Positions 55,382 through 64,000 of a stretch of 64,000 nt of DNA are shown piece by piece. This DNA comes from Candidatus Poribacteria bacterium (GTDB taxonomy: Bacteria; Poribacteria; WGA-4E; PCPOR2b), in assembly GCA_965215015.1 (NCBI GenBank), contig OZ244042.1:672001-736000 (forward strand). The letters are read 5' to 3'. The stretch's first letter is position 1, and each line of letters opens with the position of its first letter. The translations under genes were made by a program, and so were the position numbers. Below the pieces are notes generated by a model. The model did no database searches. It worked only from the letters and a program-made list of their open reading frames with translations, and had not been told where the DNA came from.

Positions 55382-57154
55382 TTGATTACTGAAAGAGAAA
55401 AGTTGATGGATTACAAACAGACGCATGTTTTGAGGGTTTTTAGTGTGCTGGTCTTAAGCATTGCAATTATTGGTAGTACCGCAGCACAAGCTCCGGATTT
55501 TCCGGCCCGGATGCCAATTGTCGAGCGGGCGTTCTCGGAAGATCCGGATAAATTCAGTTTCGCAATTATTGGTGATAAAACGGGGGGAGGGCTGGATAAG
55601 TGGCCCATATTTGACCGCGCAATCAGCGAAATTAATTCGCTGCAACCTGACTTTGCCATCATGGTTGGTGACCTGATACAAGGGGATACGATTGACCTAG
55701 AACGGCTTAAGGCGGAATGGGAGGAGTTTTGGCAGCATGAATCCCCTTTAGTCGTACCGTTTCTTCTGTTACCGGGGAACCACGATATTACCAATCGGGT
55801 GATGTATGACTATTGGGTTGAGCATATCGGACGGACCTATTCGGCTTTTACCTATAAAGATTGCTTGTTTATCATACTCAATACGGAGGAGAGACACGGG
55901 TTGCCTCAAGGCGTGGAGGACTGGTTTGGCAAGGTGCAGATTCACTATGTGGCAGCAGAATTAGAACGACACCCGGACGTGCGGCATACTTTTGTGCTGT
56001 TGCACAAACCTGCATGGCTACATGAAGGGTCCGGTTGGGATCAAATTGAGGAGGTGCTCGGTGACCGGGCATACACCGTTTTTGCTGGGCACTATCACAA
56101 CCTGACGCTGCACACACGCGATGACCATCGATACTTTGTTCTCAGCGCGACCGGCGGTGGGCTAACCCCCCGCGAAGTAAAAGAGTTCGGTGCATTTGAC
56201 CATTACAGCATTGTGACGGTGGATGGTGATGATGTCACCGTTGCGATTGTTGAACCGGGCAGTATTCATCCGGCAGACATCTCGACAGTTGCATTTAAAG
56301 AGAAGTTCAGAGATTTGCTCACCTACCAGCCTGACTTTGAGGTTGACAGAGCACAACCAGTTACCAGCGGGAAACTCGAAATCGAGTTACAAAACACGTT
56401 TGAAAAACTGGTAAAGGTTGAAATTGCGTTTGACCCAAGTGATAATTGGCAGATAACCCCAAACCAGCTTACTTTTGAGGTGAAGCCGGGGCAGGAGACA
56501 AAGAGTGTCGTGACTTTTTTAGGCGCGTCTGATGCGCTGCTTCCCTTACCGACGTTCCACTATTCCATCCTGTACGGTGGGGAACAGTTGTATAGCCGGA
56601 GCGAGAAGGTTAAGTTTGTCAATGAAGTAGATCTGCAGGCACTCAAAGATTGGCAGATTCTCGGTCCGTTTAACCTGGGTATGACAGAACGACCAACTAA
56701 CTCACAAACTGCGCCGCTACAGTTTATCGCTGAACAACTCCTGGGGGAGGGTGTAAGTGACAAAGCCTATTCGGGCAAAAATGGGCAAATCCACTGGCAA
56801 GAGTACCGCGCTGAGAGCGAAGTTATCAACTTAAACAAGGCGTTGGGAGAACCGGATTGGGCATTCGCTTACGCGGTAACCTATATCAAGAGTCCTGACG
56901 ACCGGACGGTTTTCGCTCAAATTCGATGGGGGAGTGAGTTGGGACGCCTCTCTGTCAACGATGTCGAAATCCAAGAGGCATCGTTGCCGGAAGCGGTACT
57001 GTTCTTCAATTGGGCTTATATTGAGTTGCCGCTGAAGGCTGGCTGGAATACCGTGATAGTCAAATCCGCAGATTATACAGGTGGTTGGGACTATCGGATG
57101 TGGGTTGAAAACCAGATGGATACCCTTGTCTTTTCTCATCAGATGTCACACTAA
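55382..57154 (+). CDS. Exported calcineurin-like metallophosphoesterase with C-terminal beta domains
   Basis: GD, VGDLI, PGNHD, HKP, AGHYH; signal peptide. Confidence 0.85.
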   Translation: MITEREKLMDYKQTHVLRVFSVLVLSIAIIGSTAAQAPDFPARMPIVERAFSEDPDKFSFAIIGDKTGGGLDKWPIFDRAISEINSLQPDFAIMVGDLIQGDTIDLERLKAEWEEFWQHESPLVVPFLLLPGNHDITNRVMYDYWVEHIGRTYSAFTYKDCLFIILNTEERHGLPQGVEDWFGKVQIHYVAAELERHPDVRHTFVLLHKPAWLHEGSGWDQIEEVLGDRAYTVFAGHYHNLTLHTRDDHRYFVLSATGGGLTPREVKEFGAFDHYSIVTVDGDDVTVAIVEPGSIHPADISTVAFKEKFRDLLTYQPDFEVDRAQPVTSGKLEIELQNTFEKLVKVEIAFDPSDNWQITPNQLTFEVKPGQETKSVVTFLGASDALLPLPTFHYSILYGGEQLYSRSEKVKFVNEVDLQALKDWQILGPFNLGMTERPTNSQTAPLQFIAEQLLGEGVSDKAYSGKNGQIHWQEYRAESEVINLNKALGEPDWAFAYAVTYIKSPDDRTVFAQIRWGSELGRLSVNDVEIQEASLPEAVLFFNWAYIELPLKAGWNTVIVKSADYTGGWDYRMWVENQMDTLVFSHQMSH

Positions 57155-57273
57155 TGTGTTATTCCCGGAATTTGCGTAAGGACGAGGGTGTCAATCGAAC
57201 CTTTCCACAGTATTTGGGTGAGGCACTCTCGCTCCTACCTCCACCGCAAGATCAGATCCTTCATAAATAGGTT

Positions 57274-57364
57274 GGCTCACAAAAAAAGAGAGCGCAAAAC
57301 GCTAAGAGACCCCGAGTTTTTCTTGAAAACTCGGGGTCTATTGCACGATGTCTTAACATGAACC
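57274..57364. mobile_element. 91-bp MITE with a perfect 8-bp target-site duplication
   Basis: AATAGGTT at 57266-57273 and 57365-57372; ends GGCTCA/TGAACC; internal hairpin AGACCCCGAGTTTT..AAAACTCGGGGTCT. Confidence 0.75.
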
Positions 57365-57383
57365 AATAGGTTAAATAGCGAGG

Positions 57384-58190
57384 ATGTCAGTCATGTCAAA
57401 TTACCTAGAACCGATACATCATACAGACTGGAAAAACAATAACTACCTAAGAATTTCCGGCTTCTTCTCGGATGAAGAGGTGACGGCATTGCAAGGGTGG
57501 GTCAACGACATTGAGCACTGGAAACCGACCCATGACAAGTGGCTGCACCATTTTGAAGCCACCCCAGACGGGACACGGCTTTCCCGATCGGAAAATTTCG
57601 TGTCGTACCACGCAGGTCTGAACAAGATTTTGACGGGCGGAAAGGTGCTGGAAGTTGTTTCGGAATTGATGGGCGAACCGGCAGTCCTCTACAAAGAGAA
57701 AATTAATTATAAATACCCCGGTGGTGGCGGCTACGCCGCACATCAGGACGCGCCTGCCTACGAGTTCGTTACATTCCATATTACCTGCTTAATTTCCGTC
57801 GACGCAGCGAGTCCGGAGAGCGGTTGTCTCTCTTTCTCGCCGGGGCAATACGAGAAAGGTTTCATTGCGCTTGATGAAAAGGGTTGTATTGCAGAGGAGG
57901 TCGCTTCGGAGATGGAATGGGTTGAGGTGCCAACGGAGCCGGGGGACATCCTGCTTTTCGGGTCTTATATCCCGCACAAAAGCGGAATAAACAGCTCCAA
58001 TCAGCCTCGACGCATCATTTATGTGACCTACAACGCCCTCTCCGAAGGCGATTGGCGTGAGCGGTACTATGAGGACAAACGACAGACCTTTTTGGAGTAT
58101 ACCAAAAATAGCTCAACACAAGCAAGTCAAATCAGTAAAATTGGACATTTTCAGGGAAGGACAGTGCTAAACCATGAACAATCGGATTGA
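57384..58190 (+). CDS. Fe(II)/2OG dioxygenase of the PhyH family, PhnY-like
   Basis: KEKINYKYPGGGGYAAHQD, distal H and R; overlaps the phnZ-like gene. Confidence 0.78.
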   Translation: MSVMSNYLEPIHHTDWKNNNYLRISGFFSDEEVTALQGWVNDIEHWKPTHDKWLHHFEATPDGTRLSRSENFVSYHAGLNKILTGGKVLEVVSELMGEPAVLYKEKINYKYPGGGGYAAHQDAPAYEFVTFHITCLISVDAASPESGCLSFSPGQYEKGFIALDEKGCIAEEVASEMEWVEVPTEPGDILLFGSYIPHKSGINSSNQPRRIIYVTYNALSEGDWRERYYEDKRQTFLEYTKNSSTQASQISKIGHFQGRTVLNHEQSD

Positions 58191-58770
58191 CCAAACGCTC
58201 GCGGAACAGCTGACAGGCATAACAGTAGCGGAGAAGGTTACCACGCTATTTGATTATATGGAACGCAGGGGACAGTCGTTTTACGATGAATCGGTAACGC
58301 AATTGCAACATGCGTGTCAATGTGCGAACCAGGCACAGCTGCACGGCGGAAGCACAACGCAGATTGTGAGTGCCCTGCTACATGACATCGGGCACTTTCT
58401 GTTAGATGAACATAACGCCGAGAGCGACTTTTTGGAGGAAGATCAGAATCACGAGGAGGTCGGCGCAGATTATCTGGAGCCGTTTTTCCCGGAGGCGGTT
58501 ACAACCCCGATTCGATTGCATGTGCCAGCGAAACGGTATTTGTGTACAACCGACGCATCATACTACGATGGCTTATCCGAGGCGTCGAAAAGGAGTTTCC
58601 ACCTTCAGGGTGGGGGTATGTCGGCAGAGGAACGGGCAGCGTTTGAACGCATCCTATATTATCAGGACGCGCTCCAGCTGCGACGGTGGGATGATCTCGC
58701 CAAAGTGAAGGGGTTAGAGACACCTGCAATTGGTACTTACCGCGAGATTGTGCAGGCGTGCCTGAAATAG
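58174..58770 (+). CDS. HD-domain di-iron oxygenase, PhnZ-like
   Basis: E.VTQLQHA.Q.A, LLHDIGH, HEEVGA, LHVPAKRYL, LRRWDD.AK. Confidence 0.82.
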   Translation: MNNRIDQTLAEQLTGITVAEKVTTLFDYMERRGQSFYDESVTQLQHACQCANQAQLHGGSTTQIVSALLHDIGHFLLDEHNAESDFLEEDQNHEEVGADYLEPFFPEAVTTPIRLHVPAKRYLCTTDASYYDGLSEASKRSFHLQGGGMSAEERAAFERILYYQDALQLRRWDDLAKVKGLETPAIGTYREIVQACLK

Positions 58771-58849
58771 CAGACGTTGCCATTTAGTAGAAAACGTTGC
58801 GAACCGAGAAGATGGGAATCAAGCACCGCTTGCAGTAGATTGCGGAACA

Positions 58850-61422
58850 TGTCTGAATCAGGATTTTCAGGATGGAAGGATAAACAGGATAGCAACGGCA
58901 GCATCAAAAATTCCTGGGAATCCTAGAATCAGGTGAATCGAGCTTCTGACAATTTATACGGTCTCCTCCCTGAAGAAATGGCGATTGTGGAGTGTGCGGA
59001 ACATGTCTGAATCAGGATTTTCAGGATGGAAGGATAAACAGGATAGCAAGGGCAGCATCAAAGATTCCTGGGAATCCTAGAATCAGGTGAATCGAGCTTC
59101 TGACAATTTATACGGTCTCCTCCCTGAAGAAATGGCGATTGTGGAGTGTGCGGAACATGTCTGAATCAGGATTTTCAGGATGGAAGGATAAACAGGATAG
59201 AAGGGGCAGCATCAAAAATTCCTGGGAATCATAGAATCTTGTGAATCGAGATTCTGAGAGTGGCGGAACATGTCTGAATCAGGATTTTCAGGTTGGAAGG
59301 ATAAACAGGATAGAAGGGGCAGCATCAAAATTTCTTGCGAATCCTAGAATCAGGTGAATCGAGATTCTGGCAGTTGCGGGAGATGCGTGAATGAGATAAT
59401 GAGATAAGGTGTCTATTTGAATCGGTGTGCTGAATCAGGGTTTCGAGGCTGGAAGGATAAACAGGATAGCAAGGGCAGCATCAAAGATTCCTGGGAATCC
59501 TAGAATCAGGTAAATCGAGCTTCTGACAATTTATACGGTCTCCTCCCTGAAGAAATGGCGATTGTGGAGTGTGCGGAACATGTCTGAATCAGGATTTTCA
59601 GGATGGAAGGATAAACAGGATGGCAACGGCAGCATCAAAAATTCCTGCGAATCCTAGAATCTGGTAAATCCGGATTCTGACAGTGTCGGGAGATGCGTGA
59701 ATGAGATAATGAGATAAGGTGTCTATTTGAATCGGTGTGCTGAATCAGGGTTTCGAGGCTGGCGGGATAAACAGGATAGGGCAGCATCAAAATTTCCTGC
59801 GAATCCTAGAATCAGGTGAATCCAGATTCTGACAATTTATACGGTCTCCTCCCTGAAGAAATGGCGATTGTGGAGTGTGCGGAACATGTCTGAATCAGGA
59901 TTTTCAGGATGGAAGGATAAACAGGATGGCAACGGCAGCATCAAAAATTCCTGGGAATCATAGAATCAGGTGAATCCAGATTCTGAGAGTGGGGGGAGAT
60001 GCGTGAATGAGATAAGGTGTCTATTTGAATCGGTGTGCTGAATCAGGGTTTTGAGGCTGGCGGGATAAACAGGATAGCAAGGGCAGCATCAAAGATTCCT
60101 GGGAATCATAGAATCTTGTGAATCGAGATTCTGACAGTGGCGGAACATGTCTGAATCAGGATTTTCAGGATGGAAGGATAAACAGGATAGCAACGGCAGC
60201 ATCAAAATTTCCTGGGAATCATAGAATCAGGTAAATCGAGATTCAGACAATTTATACGGTCTCCTCCCTGAAGAAATGGCGATTGTGGAGTGTGCGGAAC
60301 ATGTCTGAATCAGGATTTTCAGGATGGAAGGATAAACAGGATAGCAACGGCAGCATCAAAAATTTCTTGCGAATCCTAGAATCAGGTGAATCCAGATTCT
60401 GAGAGTGGGGGGAGATGCGTGAATGAGATAAGGTGTCTATTTGAATCGGTGTGCTGAATCAGGGTTTCGAGGCTGGAAGGATAAACAGGATAGCAAGGGC
60501 AGCATCAAAAATTTCTTGCGAATCCTAGAATCAGGTGAATCCAGATTCTGAGAGTGGGGGGAGATGCCTGAATGAGATAAGGTGTCTATTTGAATCGGTG
60601 TGCTGAATCAGGGTTTTGAGGCTGGCGGGATAAACAGGATAGGGCAGCATCAAAAATTCCTGGGAATCCTAGAATCTGGTAAATCCGGATTCTGACAGTT
60701 GCGGGAGATGCGTGAATGAGATAATGAGATAAGGTGTCTATGTGAATCGGTGTGCTGAATCAGGGTTTCGAGGCTGGCGGGATAAACAGGATAGAAGGGG
60801 CAGCATCAAAATTTCCTGGGAATCATAGAATCTTGTGAATCGAGATTCAGACAATTTATACGGTCTCCTCCCTGAAGAAATGGCGATTGTGGAGTGTGCG
60901 GAACATGTCTGAATCAGGATTTTCAGGATGGAAGGATAAACAGGATAGCAACGGCAGCATCAAAATTTCCTGGGAATCATAGAATCTTGTGAATCGAGAT
61001 TCTGACAGTGGCGGAACATGTCTGAATCAGGATTTTCAGGCTGGCGGGATAAACAGGATAGCAAGGGCAGCATCAAAAATTCCTGGGAATCCTAGAATCA
61101 GGTGAATCGAGATTCTGAGAGTGGGGGGAGATGCCTGAATGAGATAAGGTGTCTATTTGAATCGGTGTGCTGAATCAGGATTTTCAGGATGGAAGGATAA
61201 ACAGGATAGCAACGGCAGCATCAAAGATTCCTGGGAATCCTAGAATCAGGTGAATCGAGCTTCTGACAATTTATACGGTCTCCCCCCTGAAGAAATGGCG
61301 ATTGTGGAGTGTGCGGAACATGTCTGAATCAGGATTTTCAGGCTGGCGGGATAAACAGGATAGCAAGGGCAGCATCAAAGATTCCTGGGAATCGTAGAAT
61401 CTGGTAAATCCAGATTCTGACA
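58850..61422. repeat. Array of 18 imperfectly palindromic ~98-103-bp units separated by three recurring spacer classes
   Basis: Unit TGTCTGAATCAGGATTTTCAGGATGGAAGGATAAACAGGAT...AATCC/AATC...GATTCTGACA; starts at about 58850, 59004, 59158, 59271, 59427, 59581, 59737, 59887, 60035, 60148, 60302, 60451, 60600, 60752, 60906, 61019, 61167, 61321; no ORF of 60 aa or more in the track. Confidence 0.95.
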
Positions 61423-61463
61423 ATTGTATACTATTGATGCATCTGTAAGCCGATAGCCCTCGC

Positions 61464-61675
61464 TTAACTCATTTACCCCCATTTTTTTTGGTTATAGATT
61501 TGATTTATTTTTATGATTTAGGATAGTGAGAATACTTGTGATTAAGGGTGTTGGCATGTATCTCCCCTGCACATTGGCAGTGTGAACCATATCTGACAAC
61601 CCTTTCTCACATCTAGACCTCTCTAAAACAACCAACATGACACCTCTAAAAAAAATGGGGGTAAGTGAATGTTAA
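61464..61675. mobile_element. ~210-bp MITE-like element bounded by TTAA
   Basis: TTAACTCATTTACCCCCATTTTTTTT ... AAAAAAAATGGGGGTAAGTGAATGTTAA. Confidence 0.65.
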
Positions 61676-61683
61676 TTATCCTC

Positions 61684-61712
61684 TTGACAAACTGAGGATA
61701 ATCGTCTAAAAT
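61684..61712 (+). promoter_or_regulatory. Sigma70 promoter of the tRNA operon
   Basis: TTGACA-17 nt-TAAAAT, 12 nt upstream of tRNA-Asp. Confidence 0.8.
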
Positions 61713-61724
61713 ATAAGTCTTGTC

Positions 61725-61803
61725 GGACCCGTAGTGTAGCCTGGTTAAACACATCTGCCTGTCACGCAGAAGATCGCGGGTTCAAATCCCGTCGGGTCCG
61801 CCA
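61725..61803 (+). tRNA. tRNA-Asp(GTC)
   Basis: Cloverleaf, anticodon arm TCTGC-CTGTCAC-GCAGA, GTTCAAATC, CCA end. Confidence 0.96.
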
Positions 61804-61916
61804 GCTATTTATCTTTTCGTATTAATTTAATATCTTTGCGGAATGTGCGTAAAAAGAGGCTTATGCCGCAATGAAAAGCAACCAAGATTAACCCCTGCGA
61901 ATCAAGGTTGGATTTT

Positions 61917-61993
61917 GGGCGGGTAGCTCAGTTGGCTAGAGCGACGGCCTTACAAGCCGTAGGTCACAGGTTCAAGTCCTGTTCCGCCTACCA
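61917..61993 (+). tRNA. tRNA-Val(TAC)
   Basis: ACGGC-CTTACAA-GCCGT, GTTCAAGTC, CCA end. Confidence 0.96.
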
Positions 61994-62014
61994 GAAATAA
62001 AAGCGACCCTTGTC

Positions 62015-62093
62015 GGACCCGTAGTGTAGCCTGGTTAAACACATCTGCCTGTCACGCAGAAGATCGCGGGTTCAAATCCCGTCGGGTCCGCCA
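62015..62093 (+). tRNA. tRNA-Asp(GTC), identical second copy
   Basis: Identical to 61725-61803. Confidence 0.96.
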
Positions 62094-62098
62094 GTTGT

Positions 62099-62136
62099 TA
62101 AAGCCACAGGCTGTGCTTAACAGTCTGTGGCTTTTT
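62099..62136 (+). terminator. Intrinsic terminator after the tRNA operon
   Basis: AAAGCCACAGGCTGT-loop-ACAGTCTGTGGCTTTTT. Confidence 0.7.
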
Positions 62137-62176
62137 CATATCTACAGATCGAAAATATAAGAAGGAGGGCGTTCTT

Positions 62177-63475
62177 GTGTTAGATCTCAAATTCATCCGC
62201 CAAAACCCCGATGCGGTTCGAGCGATGCTAGCCGCTCGTCGGATGACAGCACCGTTGGAGGAACTTATTGAGGTAGACAGCAAATGGCGTGAATCATTGG
62301 GGGAGACAGAATCACTCAGAAGTCATCAGAACAGGGTCTCAAAAGAAATTGCACAACTCAAGAGAAACAAGCAGGATGCCTCCGAGCAGATTGCCAAGAT
62401 GAAAACGGTGTCTCAGAAGATTAAGACGTTGAACGATCAATCACAGTGTTATAAAAGTGAGGTCGATAAGATTTTAATGCTCATCCCAAACATGCCGGAT
62501 GCCAGCACACCGATTGGAAATAGCGAGGCAGATAATATCGAGATTAAGCACTGGGGAGAAATCCGAAACTTCGATTTTGAGCCGAAGCCGCACTGGGAAC
62601 TTGCGGAGGCGTTGGACATCGTTGATTTTCAGCGGGGAGCGAAGGTCGCCGGCAGCAACTTTGTGTTATACAAAGGGTTAGGGGCGAAATTGGAACGTGC
62701 GCTGATCAATTTTATGCTGGATTTGCATGTCTCTCAACACGGGTACACAGAGGTCTCCCCGCCTTTTGTCGCTAACCGTCTAACGATGACGGGCACAGGC
62801 CAGTTGCCCAAATTTGAGTCAGATATGTATCGGTGCGATCGTGACCGAGAGAATGAGGAGACGGATCTCTTTCTCATCCCAACCGCAGAGGTGCCGGTCA
62901 CTAATATTTTCGCTGGGGAGATTTTGAACGGCGAGGAGCTGCCGATCTACTATACCGCATACACTCCCTGTTTCCGACGAGAGGCGGGTTCTTACGGTCG
63001 GGAAACCCGCGGATTGCAACGTCTCCACCAGTTTGATAAGGTCGAAATGGTGAAATTAACCCTTCCGGAGACCTCTTACGACGAACACGAATCGTTGCTG
63101 CGTGATGCCGAGGAGGTTTTGCAAGCCTTCAAACTTCCCTACCGAGTCATTCAACATTGCACAGTTGATCTCTCATTCTCAGCAGCGAAGTGTTATGACA
63201 TCGAGCTTTGGGCACCAGTTGACGCAAAGTTTAACCTGGAAATTTCTTCGTGCAGTAATTTTGAGGATTTTCAGGCGCGTCGTGCGAATATCCGTTTCCG
63301 TCGTGAACCGGGCGCGAAACCTGAATTGGTGCATACCCTCAACGCCTCCGGGACAGCACTGCCACGATTGGTCATTGCAATCCTCGAAACGTATCAGCAG
63401 GAGGATGGGAGCATTCGGATTCCAGAGGCTCTCATACCTTACATGGGTGGGGTTGAGACGCTTGAATTGACGTGA
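62177..63475 (+). CDS. serS: Serine--tRNA ligase
   Basis: [36 protein letters not shown]. Confidence 0.97.
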
Positions 63476-63838
63476 TACGTGAAACGTTGACCTCGTGGAA
63501 GAAAGGCAGAAGAAATTCAAGGTGTAAGTGGAGATCAAGCAGGACAACCCCACATTTCAATATGGGTGCTACTGGAAATCAAAAAACGTATATGAGAGAC
63601 AATATATGCTCAAGCCAGACGAGATTACGGGCGCGATTGAATCAATAAGCGGATCTGTCGCTTGGTAATCTCCTGTAACCGGTGCTCCCATTCCTTCCGT
63701 TCTGCCTCCAGTTCTGGGAGGTGTGAAGGTCTGTTCCTTTCTGTTGTTACCGTTCACTGTAGCGGTGCACCGTTGTTAGGCGGTTCAACCCTGTGAGTTA
63801 TAGGAGTGCGTTACATCCGAAAAAAGAAGGAGAATACA

Positions 63839-64000
63839 ATGAATGACAAAGGCTATGCTCATCCACAATTGCTGATTTCCGTTGAAGAGTTGATGAGCAG
63901 ACTCGACGACGGTTCAATCTGCCTTGTGGATGTTCGACCGACGCATGAATATGTCGAGGGACATATCCCCGGTGCTATCCATCTCGATCTATTCGCAATC
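63839..64000 (+). CDS. Rhodanese-type sulfurtransferase (partial)
   Basis: MNDKGYAHPQLLISVEEL...VDVR...YVEGHIPGA; AAGGAG RBS. Confidence 0.85.
   Translation, partial: MNDKGYAHPQLLISVEELMSRLDDGSICLVDVRPTHEYVEGHIPGAIHLDLFAI

Follow-up and report, generated by a model that had tools for sequence, protein, structure and literature searches.

A tandem palindrome array beside a tRNA cluster in a Candidatus Poribacteria genome resembles a BIME-type repeat cluster whose spacers appear to be restriction-gene remnants

The question raised by this locus is what 18 long palindromes, separated by spacers of only a few recurring kinds, represent in front of a tRNA cluster within the window (the whole 64,000-nt stretch of DNA that was analysed). 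Parsing on the anchor CTGAATCAGG gave 18 units of 98-103 nt on the forward strand, exactly reproducing the number and extent of an earlier note on this DNA, and re-parsing of all 17 spacers returned the classes and order which that note had given, A A C B A B A B' C A B' B' B A C B' A. The array and an example of its repeating element are as follows.

58850..61422, + strand: array of 18 units and 17 spacers (parsing; Tandem Repeats Finder)
58850..58891, + strand: example of a head, the left arm of unit 1, TGTCTGAATC then four RGAT at 9-8-9 spacing (213-copy consensus)

Fourteen of the units were 102 nt long, with pairwise identities of 79-98% (mean 90%), two were 98 nt and two 103 nt. Each consisted of two inverted copies of a sequence of about 40 nt, referred to here as the head, giving arms of 40 nt that were 70-73% complementary with 22 nt between them, and the 7-9-8-9 spacing of GAT/ATC submotifs was confirmed. 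The array had a G+C content of 45%, compared with 49% for the genome, and Tandem Repeats Finder reported overlapping periods of 113, 148-154 and 306 nt. The longest ORF overlapping it (56 aa, 58737-58907, - strand) had its start in the upstream flank, in keeping with the description of the array as non-coding. The view that it is neither a CRISPR nor a plain VNTR was likewise supported: a CRISPR has repeats of some 24-48 nt and unique spacers roughly as long, whereas here there were units of 98-103 nt and 17 spacers of 11-54 nt in three to four recurring classes.

The genome-wide consensus of 213 copies defined the head as a terminal TGTCTGAATC followed by four RGAT sub-repeats at intervals of 8-9 nt, with GGAT at positions 12-15, 21-24, 29-32 and 38-41; positions 1-4 were TGTC in most copies, and 15 had C at position 1. 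When the head was searched for throughout the genome and its relatives, nhmmer returned 327 head matches in 84 clusters, and the head was present in all 19 congeneric genomes and in 27 of 41 relatives. At least 38 other arrays with three or more heads were seen in the genome, and head-plus-tail arrays in it had periods of 100, 144, 245 and 371 nt. Outside this group, the exact 23-nt head pattern was found in at least 120 stretches from at least eight phyla, against a chance expectation of about 2.2. The 80 titled loci among the matches listed were from Bacteroidota (30), Chloroflexota (18), Poribacteria (9), Beggiatoa-like Gammaproteobacteria (6), Nostocales (6), Latescibacterota (3) and others. 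Of 132 heads, 102 had RGAT in the third slot and 99 had it in the fourth (about 5% expected at random), so that conservation reached past the 23-nt pattern used in the search. Co-oriented serial heads were observed in loci titled Dolichospermum, Dehalococcoidia and Marinigracilibium. Twenty-nine cross-phylum copies had the ends TGTCTGAATC...GATTCAGACA and sizes of 64-200 nt, with one to six sub-terminal repeats per arm; by eye, their flanks mostly extended the palindrome by (A)T...A(T), and no direct repeat was seen. In the plasmid collection the head was found in three records, where the match was unannotated, and seven head stretches were seen in viral contigs. The palindrome family is common in the host genus, and its core recurs in many phyla. 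No published description of the head sequence or of the repeat was found in a search confined to the main text of papers.

Given the arrangement of its arms, each unit had previously been drawn as a regularly bulged hairpin, and the array might on this basis encode a structured multi-hairpin RNA or work as single-stranded DNA hairpins. Every unit can be drawn in this form, the minimum-free-energy folds of units 1 and 10 were the bulged hairpin of the earlier note, a copy in a Thioploca-titled locus formed a near-perfect hairpin (z -12.8), and head-like sequences occurred in RNA-library contigs. However, the z-scores of the three window units folded were -1.7, -5.3 and -0.3, two of them weak, and the arms did not covary, the match within elements being 0.707 and that between unrelated elements 0.712 (permutation p ~0.7, n=29). 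Left-arm variants in units 5, 7, 9 and 12-14 were unmatched by changes in the right arm. Rfam 15 at gathering score identified only tRNAs in 57000-64000, the five cross-phylum loci gave only sub-threshold miRNA hairpin models, and neither promoter-like nor terminator-like sites were seen inside the array. The conserved feature is a sequence motif and not base pairing; the hairpin is a by-product, and a role for the array as folded RNA or DNA is very improbable. The RNA contigs of run X20 covered head-like pieces from other places and the empty site of a relative, not this array.

The spacers were the second element of the locus to be examined, the earlier note having described them as a three-letter alphabet. 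Their classes and positions are given below.

58952..59003, 59106-59157, 59529-59580, 59835-59886, 60250-60301, 60854-60905 and 61269-61320, + strand: spacer A, 52 nt, seven copies
59260..59270, 60137-60147 and 61008-61018, + strand: spacer C, 11 nt, three copies, the last 11 nt of A
59373..59426, 59683-59736 and 60698-60751, + strand: spacer B, 54 nt, three copies
59989-60034, 60405-60450, 60554-60599 and 61121-61166, + strand: spacer B', 46 nt, four copies

Spacer A matched the first 8 nt of the leader of an Eco57I-type gene joined, at TTATAC, to the last 44 nt of its ORF, and together with the TGTCTGA of the next head it translates as LYGLLPEEMAIVECAEHV followed by a stop. Six Eco57I-type ORFs had 3' ends that agreed with this region at 44-49 of 59 nt, and the same spacer was present in six different arrays. 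Spacer C with the following TGTCTGA gave the codons VAEHV and a stop, while B and B' consisted of the pre-head (the tail of A), a truncated and degenerate head start and a linker; after all seven of them the next unit began with GTGC and not TGTC. Less decayed versions of B and B' were found in the array at G000:3336836. As read from these alignments, spacer A would be the deletion footprint of an Eco57I-type (type IIG) restriction-modification gene, with C and B deriving from its tail, so that the alphabet loses its standing as a code. A tidy "spacer alphabet" can be gene debris, which is a caution for annotation.

An association with restriction genes was also seen across the genome. A head lay within 300 nt downstream of 12 of the 24 Eco57I-domain ORFs in the genome, compared with 24 of 805 ORFs of at least 500 codons, although the Eco57I paralogues share ancestry and the 12 do not represent 12 independent events. 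In six of the 12, the stop codon was the TGA inside TGTCTGA. PADLOC called the neighbours of heads type IIG restriction-modification, HmaB/HmaC and HKD+Snf2.

Comparison with related genomes bears on how the array came to lie at this position; the flanking features are as follows.

58174..58770, + strand: HD-domain protein gene (ORF; matches the Pfam HD domain at E 8.9e-5; 17 of the 19 congeneric genomes have an orthologue)
58843..58849, + strand: pre-head CGGAACA, left edge of the inserted block (a run X6 contig departs from the window at 58842)
61423..61467, + strand: terminal module, equal to the initial 45 nt of the leader found elsewhere before Eco57I-type genes
61469..61669, no strand assigned: MITE-like internal-deletion derivative of a 1.34-kb IS4-like insertion sequence (genome BLAST matches both IS ends)
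61684..61712, + strand: promoter-like site for the tRNA cluster, TTGACA and TAAAAT separated by 17 nt, also conserved in relatives
61725..62093, + strand: tRNA-Asp, tRNA-Val, tRNA-Asp

The tRNA neighbourhood described earlier was thereby located downstream of the array, and genes within 5 kb matched PFK, YdjM, metallophosphoesterase, PhyH, an HD-domain protein and seryl-tRNA synthetase. The stop codon of the HD gene marked the ancestral edge of the intergenic spacer, which in 15 congeneric genomes measured 72-403 nt from that stop codon to tRNA-Asp; heads were present at none of the 19 loci examined. In a 98.5%-identical strain, the run X6 contig passed directly from 58842 to 61670, with eight differences in 543 nt. 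At the left edge of the block the relatives read AAATAG TGCGGAAATTTC, and CGGAACA, which corresponds to the last codons of Eco57I-type genes, resembled the TGCGGAA of their empty site. The right edge, at 61670, was formed by the right end of the MITE-like remnant, and the 45-nt leader module also followed the last unit of at least six other arrays. The array, the leader and the IS-derived MITE are present in this lineage only. A flank of the block was 98.4% identical over 248 nt to G000:5660041-5659794, the downstream flank of an array beside an Hma-type defence operon. A second orthologous locus, G000:5211754, lay in a region too variable among relatives to define an insertion. The earlier statement that cas, integrase and transposase genes were missing from the vicinity held in so far as none of the 11 PF00589 matches of the genome fell in the window; with the MITE-like remnant adjoining the array, however, mobile DNA is present in the neighbourhood. 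Full IS4-like copies, such as G000:2232625-2233961, contained a DDE-type ORF of 386 codons (by eye); the element was rejected as a source of heads, its ends being unrelated to them.

Since long tandem repeats are prone to assembly errors, the array could in principle be an artefact. Contigs from a second study (run X5) were identical to the window over 58554-58870 and 61635-61742, without differences at either block edge, and another X5 contig spanned 61364-61498; the first of these matches enters unit 1 by 21 nt (bridging threshold 31), and the contigs inform on the block edges rather than on the internal order of units. Contig joints from 60699 to 61156 and from 60699 back to 59416 were each seen in single contigs within repeats and were left out. 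The genome is a single 5.94-Mb contig and, as noted, holds at least 38 further arrays of this kind, which makes an artefact extremely unlikely.

Taken at a probability of about 60%, the best reading of these observations is that the array is a cluster of a non-coding palindromic repeat which resembles those of the BIME type, with spacers that are remnants of a restriction gene, and that at this locus it is most likely selfish or neutral DNA with no dedicated cellular role. A type IIG restriction-modification gene would once have stood between two palindromes and been deleted between two TTATAC repeats, after which slippage or unequal recombination between near-identical palindromes may have multiplied and shuffled the resulting palindrome-footprint module. 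The HD-tRNA spacer would then have acquired a copy of the entire block through illegitimate recombination at the TGCGGAA microhomology. Both the tandem growth and this joining step are deductions from sequence. The heads themselves are most likely recognition sequences for a DNA-binding or mobilising protein. Consistent with a BIME, the repeat was extragenic, in high copy (327 heads in 84 clusters) and in alternating orientation, with linkers of classes A, B and C, and the inverted half-elements of its intergenic palindromes were like those of REP, BIME and REPIN families. Of the three options in the earlier note, the BIME/REPIN-like mosaic fitted best, the array being a high-copy intergenic palindrome repeated along with stretches of adjoining DNA. 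Tandem reiteration of this kind is described for large REP clusters (PMC3733652; PMC2817692), and the CGTC REPs form a family with no known transposase (PMC3733652). The present family nevertheless differed from REPs, which are G+C-rich and 20-40 nt long, in its 102-nt unit with 40-nt arms of 8-9-nt sub-repeats, in its TGTC (rarely CGTC) rather than GTAG end and in its lack of a cognate RAYT flanked by the repeat. Conservation of a core in at least eight phyla is, in the parts of the REP literature covered, not reported for REP families.

Attention was given to enzymes that could mobilise the palindrome, RAYT/HUH enzymes and tyrosine recombinases having been suggested in the earlier note. Only two fragments of a RAYT-type Y1 transposase (PF01797) were detected in the genome, neither near a head cluster, and RAYT was rejected as a partner, Y1 also occurring in four of five genomes of a head-less family. 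When 4735 ORFs from 213 head regions were compared all against all by BLAST, no recurrent transposase emerged. The ORFs between distant inverted heads, which encoded a LexA-like protein, TPR, TIR-TPR and flotillin and, by eye, ATPase-like, HsdM, FRG-like, short-chain dehydrogenase and PIN-like proteins, included no autonomous element with the same ends. Four of the 11 PF00589 tyrosine-recombinase matches lay within about 1 kb of a head, and in one Cre-like subfamily a head was found about 100 nt upstream of the start in all five copies. This subfamily is a multi-copy element of the host genome alone, and its association with heads thus counts as one event; as a partner it was rejected, a head being present at only two of 28 homologous loci in relatives and the recombinase family in four of five genomes of a head-less family. 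In summary, no RAYT, integron integrase, transposase or recombinase tracks the palindrome.

With terminal inverted repeats and small size, the 29 cross-phylum copies were also MITE-like. Correia/NEMIS MITEs of Neisseria are similar, being about 100-150 nt long and intergenic, with long TIRs, TG...CA ends and no known transposase. Unlike MITEs, for which tandem arrays are unusual, the present palindromes are typically found in such arrays; no target-site duplication was evident by eye at the 29 palindromes, the number of sub-terminal repeats varied and no autonomous copy was found.

A further possibility was that the palindromes are attC-like recombination sites of an undescribed defence-cassette system, the array being a run of cassettes that have been emptied or have degenerated. 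CALINs, which are integron attC arrays without an integrase, likewise place imperfect palindromes of about 100 nt in direct arrays, with short or gene-sized segments, defence genes included, between them. In the host genome, palindromes stood on both sides of Eco57I-type, HmaB/HmaC and Snf2 genes, and in other phyla they flanked GxxExxY, HsdM, an ATPase-like ORF and a PIN-like ORF (the last three by eye). Tandem head arrays in several phyla, the sharing of spacer A by six arrays, and an HmaB-like methylase whose C-terminus was replaced by the pre-head tail IVEGAENV and a stop could be understood in the same way. However, the best score for the integron integrase model TIGR02249 was 49.9 bits against a cut-off of 265, no attC-type Rfam match was obtained, and the Cre-like recombinase did not follow the head. 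The junction in spacer A was a TTATAC microhomology outside the palindrome, the spacers were gene remnants and not cassettes, and the genes beside heads in other phyla were mostly ordinary housekeeping genes. Whereas attC sites are conserved in structure and variable in sequence, the sequence was conserved here and the arms showed no covariation; attC core sequences were not seen in the palindromes by eye. Empty recombination sites, one of the options raised previously, are accordingly a doubtful explanation.

The suggestion, also in the earlier note, that comparable palindromes occur beside GxxExxY genes was borne out elsewhere but not in the host. A GxxExxY gene (TIGR04256/PF13366) was flanked by palindromes in six of 120 cross-phylum loci and in a seventh, a relative's locus; among relatives, a head lay within 1.5 kb of seven of 30 GxxExxY loci. 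Those inside or between palindromes were found in Bacteroidota and in relatives of the host. The host genome contained no GxxExxY gene despite its 327 heads, three genomes of a head-less family carry GxxExxY, and other GxxExxY genes were flanked by different 8-10-nt periodic repeats (by eye). The listed papers that use the term do not, judging by title and abstract, deal with these repeats. Small ORFs embedded in palindromes also include those of the four-helix-bundle '23S rRNA intervening sequence' proteins. Downstream of single heads in relatives, TIR-like, ATPase-like and AlbA_2-like ORFs were seen by eye. It is conceivable, if rather unlikely, that the palindromes are the non-autonomous form of a cross-phylum selfish element whose ORF-bearing form carries a GxxExxY PD-(D/E)XK nuclease that would recognise or cut heads, as RAYTs do for REPINs, driving the gain, loss and shuffling of defence genes and leaving arrays as debris.

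The final alternative was that heads bind a host protein in gene regulation, nucleoid organisation or restriction-modification control, making the array a high-capacity binding platform. The motif was kept without covariation of pairs, and both arms, in different phyla, retained its RGAT periodicity. The right arm at G000:1077936 lay about 35 nt upstream of a start codon and its tract was kept in 18 of 18 aligned relative loci (17 genomes), while the terminal GATTCAGACA was absent or decayed in seven loci (six genomes); judged from these alignments, this locus looks older and more stable than junk. Heads also abutted stop codons, a same-strand long ORF ending -15 to +80 nt from 48 of 254 cross-phylum heads compared with 10 of 254 in the opposite orientation. 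Against this, the array is dispensable at its present position, as it is missing from the 98.5%-identical strain and from the congeneric genomes. The head clusters of the genome lay in 50 tandem, 24 divergent and 10 convergent gene contexts, and 23 co-oriented against 22 other tandem cases indicated no orientation bias. No candidate protein was identified. A binding platform is improbable. Conservation of 40 nt across phyla, which is atypical of REPs, nevertheless hints at a specific, perhaps functional, partner.

A 40-nt non-coding sequence that is nearly unchanged in Poribacteria, Bacteroidota, Chloroflexota, Nostocales, Beggiatoa-like bacteria and others calls for a shared partner protein or vehicle. 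Such a partner, if found, could reveal what the proteins of the large but unstudied GxxExxY family do and could also explain the RAYT-free spread of small palindromic repeats. For the host phylum, whose members are sponge symbionts, half of this genome's type IIG restriction genes are marked by the repeats, which also keep the scar of a deleted one and provide a handle on the gain and loss of defence genes.

The palindrome array comprised 18 head-to-tail units, each consisting of two inverted copies of a conserved core of about 40 nt (the head), and 17 spacers. The spacer order given in the earlier note, A A C B A B A B' C A B' B' B A C B' A, was matched exactly.

58850-61422: palindrome array; unit lengths 102 nt (14 units), 98 nt (2 units) and 103 nt (2 units)
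Spacers (n = 17): A, 52 nt, 7 copies; C, 11 nt, 3 copies; B, 54 nt, 3 copies; B', 46 nt, 4 copies

The 40-nt arms of a unit were 70-73% complementary and separated by 22 nt, and Tandem Repeats Finder returned overlapping periods of 113, 148-154 and 306. Upstream of the array lies an HD-domain gene (58174-58770, plus strand), and downstream lie tRNA-Asp, tRNA-Val and tRNA-Asp genes followed by seryl-tRNA synthetase. The G+C content of the array was 45.0% (genome, 49.3%), and the longest ORF touching it (56 aa; 58737-58907, minus strand) starts in the upstream flank. No sigma-70-like promoter or intrinsic-terminator-like site was found within the array, the sole promoter-like match being the tRNA promoter at 61684-61712. 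Units 16-18 were hybrids between both left-arm types, indicating that units exchanged sequence.

In the window's own genome (G000; 5.94 Mb, one contig), the complete unit matched 153 places. When its modules were searched separately by BLAST, the left arm gave 186 matches and every other module far fewer (right arm, 26; loop, 22; spacer A, 22; spacer B, 15). A regular expression recovered 213 heads, with the consensus TGTCTGAATC-AGGATTTYC-AGGATKDA-AGGATWMAC-AGGAT and GGAT at positions 12-15, 21-24, 29-32 and 38-41; a profile built from these gave 327 hits, which group into 84 clusters spanning about 50 kb; at least 38 of these contain three or more heads. In many clusters, a head and a tail particular to the locus were repeated in tandem (for example, 11 x 100 nt and 5 x 144 nt), and arrays of 5-11 copies included the following.

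G000:3401969-3403009: tandem head array, period 100 nt
G000:4098088-4098704: tandem head array, period 144 nt
G000:3712713-3713355: tandem head array, period 100 nt
G000:4109253-4110183: tandem head array, period about 112 nt

In the first two of these, the 40-nt head was identical at each unit start and the tails differed; the 100-nt tandem unit was also found singly at about eight loci. As the left arm is far commoner and many arrays consist of head plus tail, the palindrome of the window is a special case, with an inverted and diverged second head in place of the tail.

The earlier note had described each unit as able to form a regularly bulged hairpin, and such a structure can indeed be drawn, but the arms showed no compensatory evolution. 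For 29 complete palindromes of other phyla, the variable left-arm part was compared with reverse-complemented right arms. Identity was 70.7% to the arm of the same element and 71.2% to those of unrelated elements (permutation p about 0.7), so that own-arm identity was no higher. Similarly, the left-arm variant in units 5, 7, 9 and 12-14 had no answering change in the right arms. Each arm was an independent run of one to six GGATT-type 8-9-mers with a terminal decamer at its end, and the bulged hairpin can be drawn because the motif was kept in both arms while the positions in between drifted. What is conserved is the motif itself and not the pairing. RNA fold z-scores were -1.7, -5.3 and -0.3 for units 1, 10 and 7, respectively, and -12.8 for a palindrome from a locus titled Thioploca. 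Apart from sub-threshold miRNA hairpin models, Rfam gave no match in the window or in five cross-phylum loci.

Many arrays in the genome start at a gene's stop codon; the genes concerned have about 1000-1200 codons and encode Eco57I-type type IIG restriction-modification enzymes, HmaB-like methylases with HmaC-like ATPases and one HKD+Snf2 helicase. A head lay within 300 nt downstream of 12/24 Eco57I-domain ORFs versus 24/805 ORFs of at least 500 codons, although the Eco57I paralogues share ancestry and the 12/24 are thus not independent events. In six of the 12 head-flanked Eco57I-domain ORFs the stop codon was the TGA inside TGTCTGA. The 24 Eco57I-domain ORFs, mostly of 1000-1340 codons, form an unusually large type IIG paralogue set for a 5.9-Mb genome. 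Spacer A with the next 7 nt translates to LYGLLPEEMAIVECAEHV* and matched the 3' ends of six Eco57I-type genes at 44-49/59 nt. Furthermore, it opens with ATTTATAC, the same 8 nt that open the leader between a palindrome and the Eco57I gene at G000:3333297; that gene reads ...TGTTATAC|GGTCTG... where spacer A continues. As spacer A thus joins a leader start to a gene 3' end, it would be the remainder left once a leader and Eco57I-type ORF of about 3.6 kb had been deleted between two TTATAC repeats. Spacer C equals the final 11 nt of spacer A, and spacers B and B' have the same tail as C followed by a degenerate 12-nt head start and a 23-31-nt linker. Units began with GTGC after 7/7 B or B' spacers and with TGTC after 10/10 A or C spacers. 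At G000:3336836, an array that follows an Eco57I gene contained less decayed A and B spacers.

In 15 congeneric genomes, with flanking genes 83-90% identical, the HD gene stop and tRNA-Asp were 72-403 nt apart, and no head was found in any of 19 corresponding loci of relatives. A contig from sequencing run X6, with 8 differences over 543 nt of flanking sequence, follows the window up to 58842 and resumes at 61670, which defines the inserted block as 58843-61669.

Part 1: the array
Part 2, 61423-61467: 45 nt identical to an Eco57I-gene leader
Part 3, 61469-61669: 200-nt MITE-like internal-deletion derivative of a 1.34-kb IS4-like element

At least eight full copies of the IS4-like element occur in the genome (for example, G000:2232625-2233961), with a 386-codon DDE-type ORF, read by eye, and terminal repeats beginning CAYTTACCCCCATTTTTTTT. 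Contigs from run X5, a second study, were identical to the window at 58554-58870 and at 61635-61742, the latter bridging the right block edge, and had one difference at 61364-61498. Run X1 may represent the source sample. Just past the HD stop codon, relatives read TGCGGAAATTTC and the window reads TTGCGGAACA-TGTCTG, and we infer that the block may have been joined at this TGCGGAAATTTC/TTGCGGAACA microhomology. The 248 nt past the last unit share 98.4% identity with the flank of another array, which lies behind an HmaB-like gene (G000:5660041). This DUF1156 methylase (G000:5660581-5663469; locus L163:1082-3970, minus strand) ends ...QQQLTIK-IVEGAENV*, and a paralogue ends ...QQQLTIKEVLPPKQAPVP*; judging from these sequences, its own 3' end has been replaced by the array's pre-head sequence, giving the tail IVEGAENV*. 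Other, unrelated insertions of 200-330 nt occupied the HD-stop site (window 58770) at the congeneric loci L187, L195-L198, L202 and L203, and about 15 nt before the insertions, ending AAATAG, appear duplicated. The HD-stop site appears to be an insertion hotspot.

Several candidate partner proteins were considered. No GxxExxY gene (TIGR04256/PF13366) or integron integrase was found in the genome, and no recurrent transposase was found near heads. GxxExxY was present in 22/41 relatives, including 3/5 genomes of a family lacking heads, and heads lay within 1.5 kb of 7/30 GxxExxY loci in relatives. Among the matches listed, 6/120 cross-phylum loci had GxxExxY inside or between palindromes, with a seventh case in a relative's locus. 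At L204, L205, L212, L214, L216 and L220, GxxExxY occurred without this head, flanked by different 8-10-nt periodic repeats (by eye), some ending in a similar terminal motif (...GATTCAGACG, ...GTTCAGACA); these repeats hint at a wider superfamily of periodic palindromes. With 120 of 184 eligible flanking ORFs scanned, PDDEXK_3 was the commonest Pfam family (4), restriction-modification families numbered 2 each and the remainder were housekeeping. A Y1 transposase was rejected, as two fragments were present here and it also occurs in families without heads. A Cre-like recombinase was suggestive in the window's genome, but a head was present at only 2/28 relatives' loci. Cre-like tyrosine recombinase genes form a paralogous set of about ten in the genome, with several of the genes truncated; members include:

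G000:6756-7751
G000:2380272-2381294
G000:50251-51192
G000:4229810-4230838
G000:3623708-3624784

One subfamily, of near-identical copies and restricted to this genome, has a head palindrome about 100 nt upstream, and a second has a conserved inverted repeat (ATCACAC...GTGTGAT) directly past the stop codon.

Heads were present in 19/19 congeneric genomes, 3/5 other genera of the family and 4/6 genomes of a second family, and were not found in 10 genomes from two further families of the order. A cross-phylum scan for exact matches to a 23-nt degenerate head pattern, with one genome per species, returned at least 120 stretches against an estimated 2.2 chance matches. Outside the 23 nt searched, RGAT filled the third slot in 102/132 heads and the fourth in 99/132 (random, about 5%). 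Titled loci among the matches listed (n = 80) belonged to Bacteroidota (30), Chloroflexota (18), Candidatus Poribacteria (9), Beggiatoa/Thiomargarita/Thioploca-like bacteria (6), Nostocales (6), Latescibacterota (3), other Pseudomonadota (3), Ignavibacteriales and Kapaibacterium (2) and Desulfamplus (1). Series of 4-6 co-oriented heads were seen at L068 (titled Dolichospermum), L141, L070 (Dehalococcoidia) and L105 (Marinigracilibium), with periods of about 87, 83, 100-106 and 330-356 nt, respectively. Array formation looks like a trait of the head family and not of the window's genome alone.

No description of the head family was found in searches of the main text of published papers, and this cross-phylum palindromic repeat family is apparently undescribed so far. 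REP clusters in which units are reiterated together with flanking DNA are already on record (PMC3733652), and the window's array is alike in this respect. The array resembles a BIME-type cluster of a cross-phylum palindromic repeat, built up around the remains of a lost restriction gene. At G000:1077936, about 35 nt upstream of a conserved gene's start codon, an ATCCTG sub-repeat tract was kept in 18/18 aligned relative loci (17 genomes), with the terminal GATTCAGACA absent or decayed in 7/18 loci (6 genomes). Among relatives, roughly 1 to 5 sub-repeats of 8-9 nt were counted by eye, and one form resembles the product of a slippage deletion between two ATCCTGATT repeats. The retention of this tract across relatives indicates that the head family is old and vertically inherited at some sites, and that it is expanding and moving at others.
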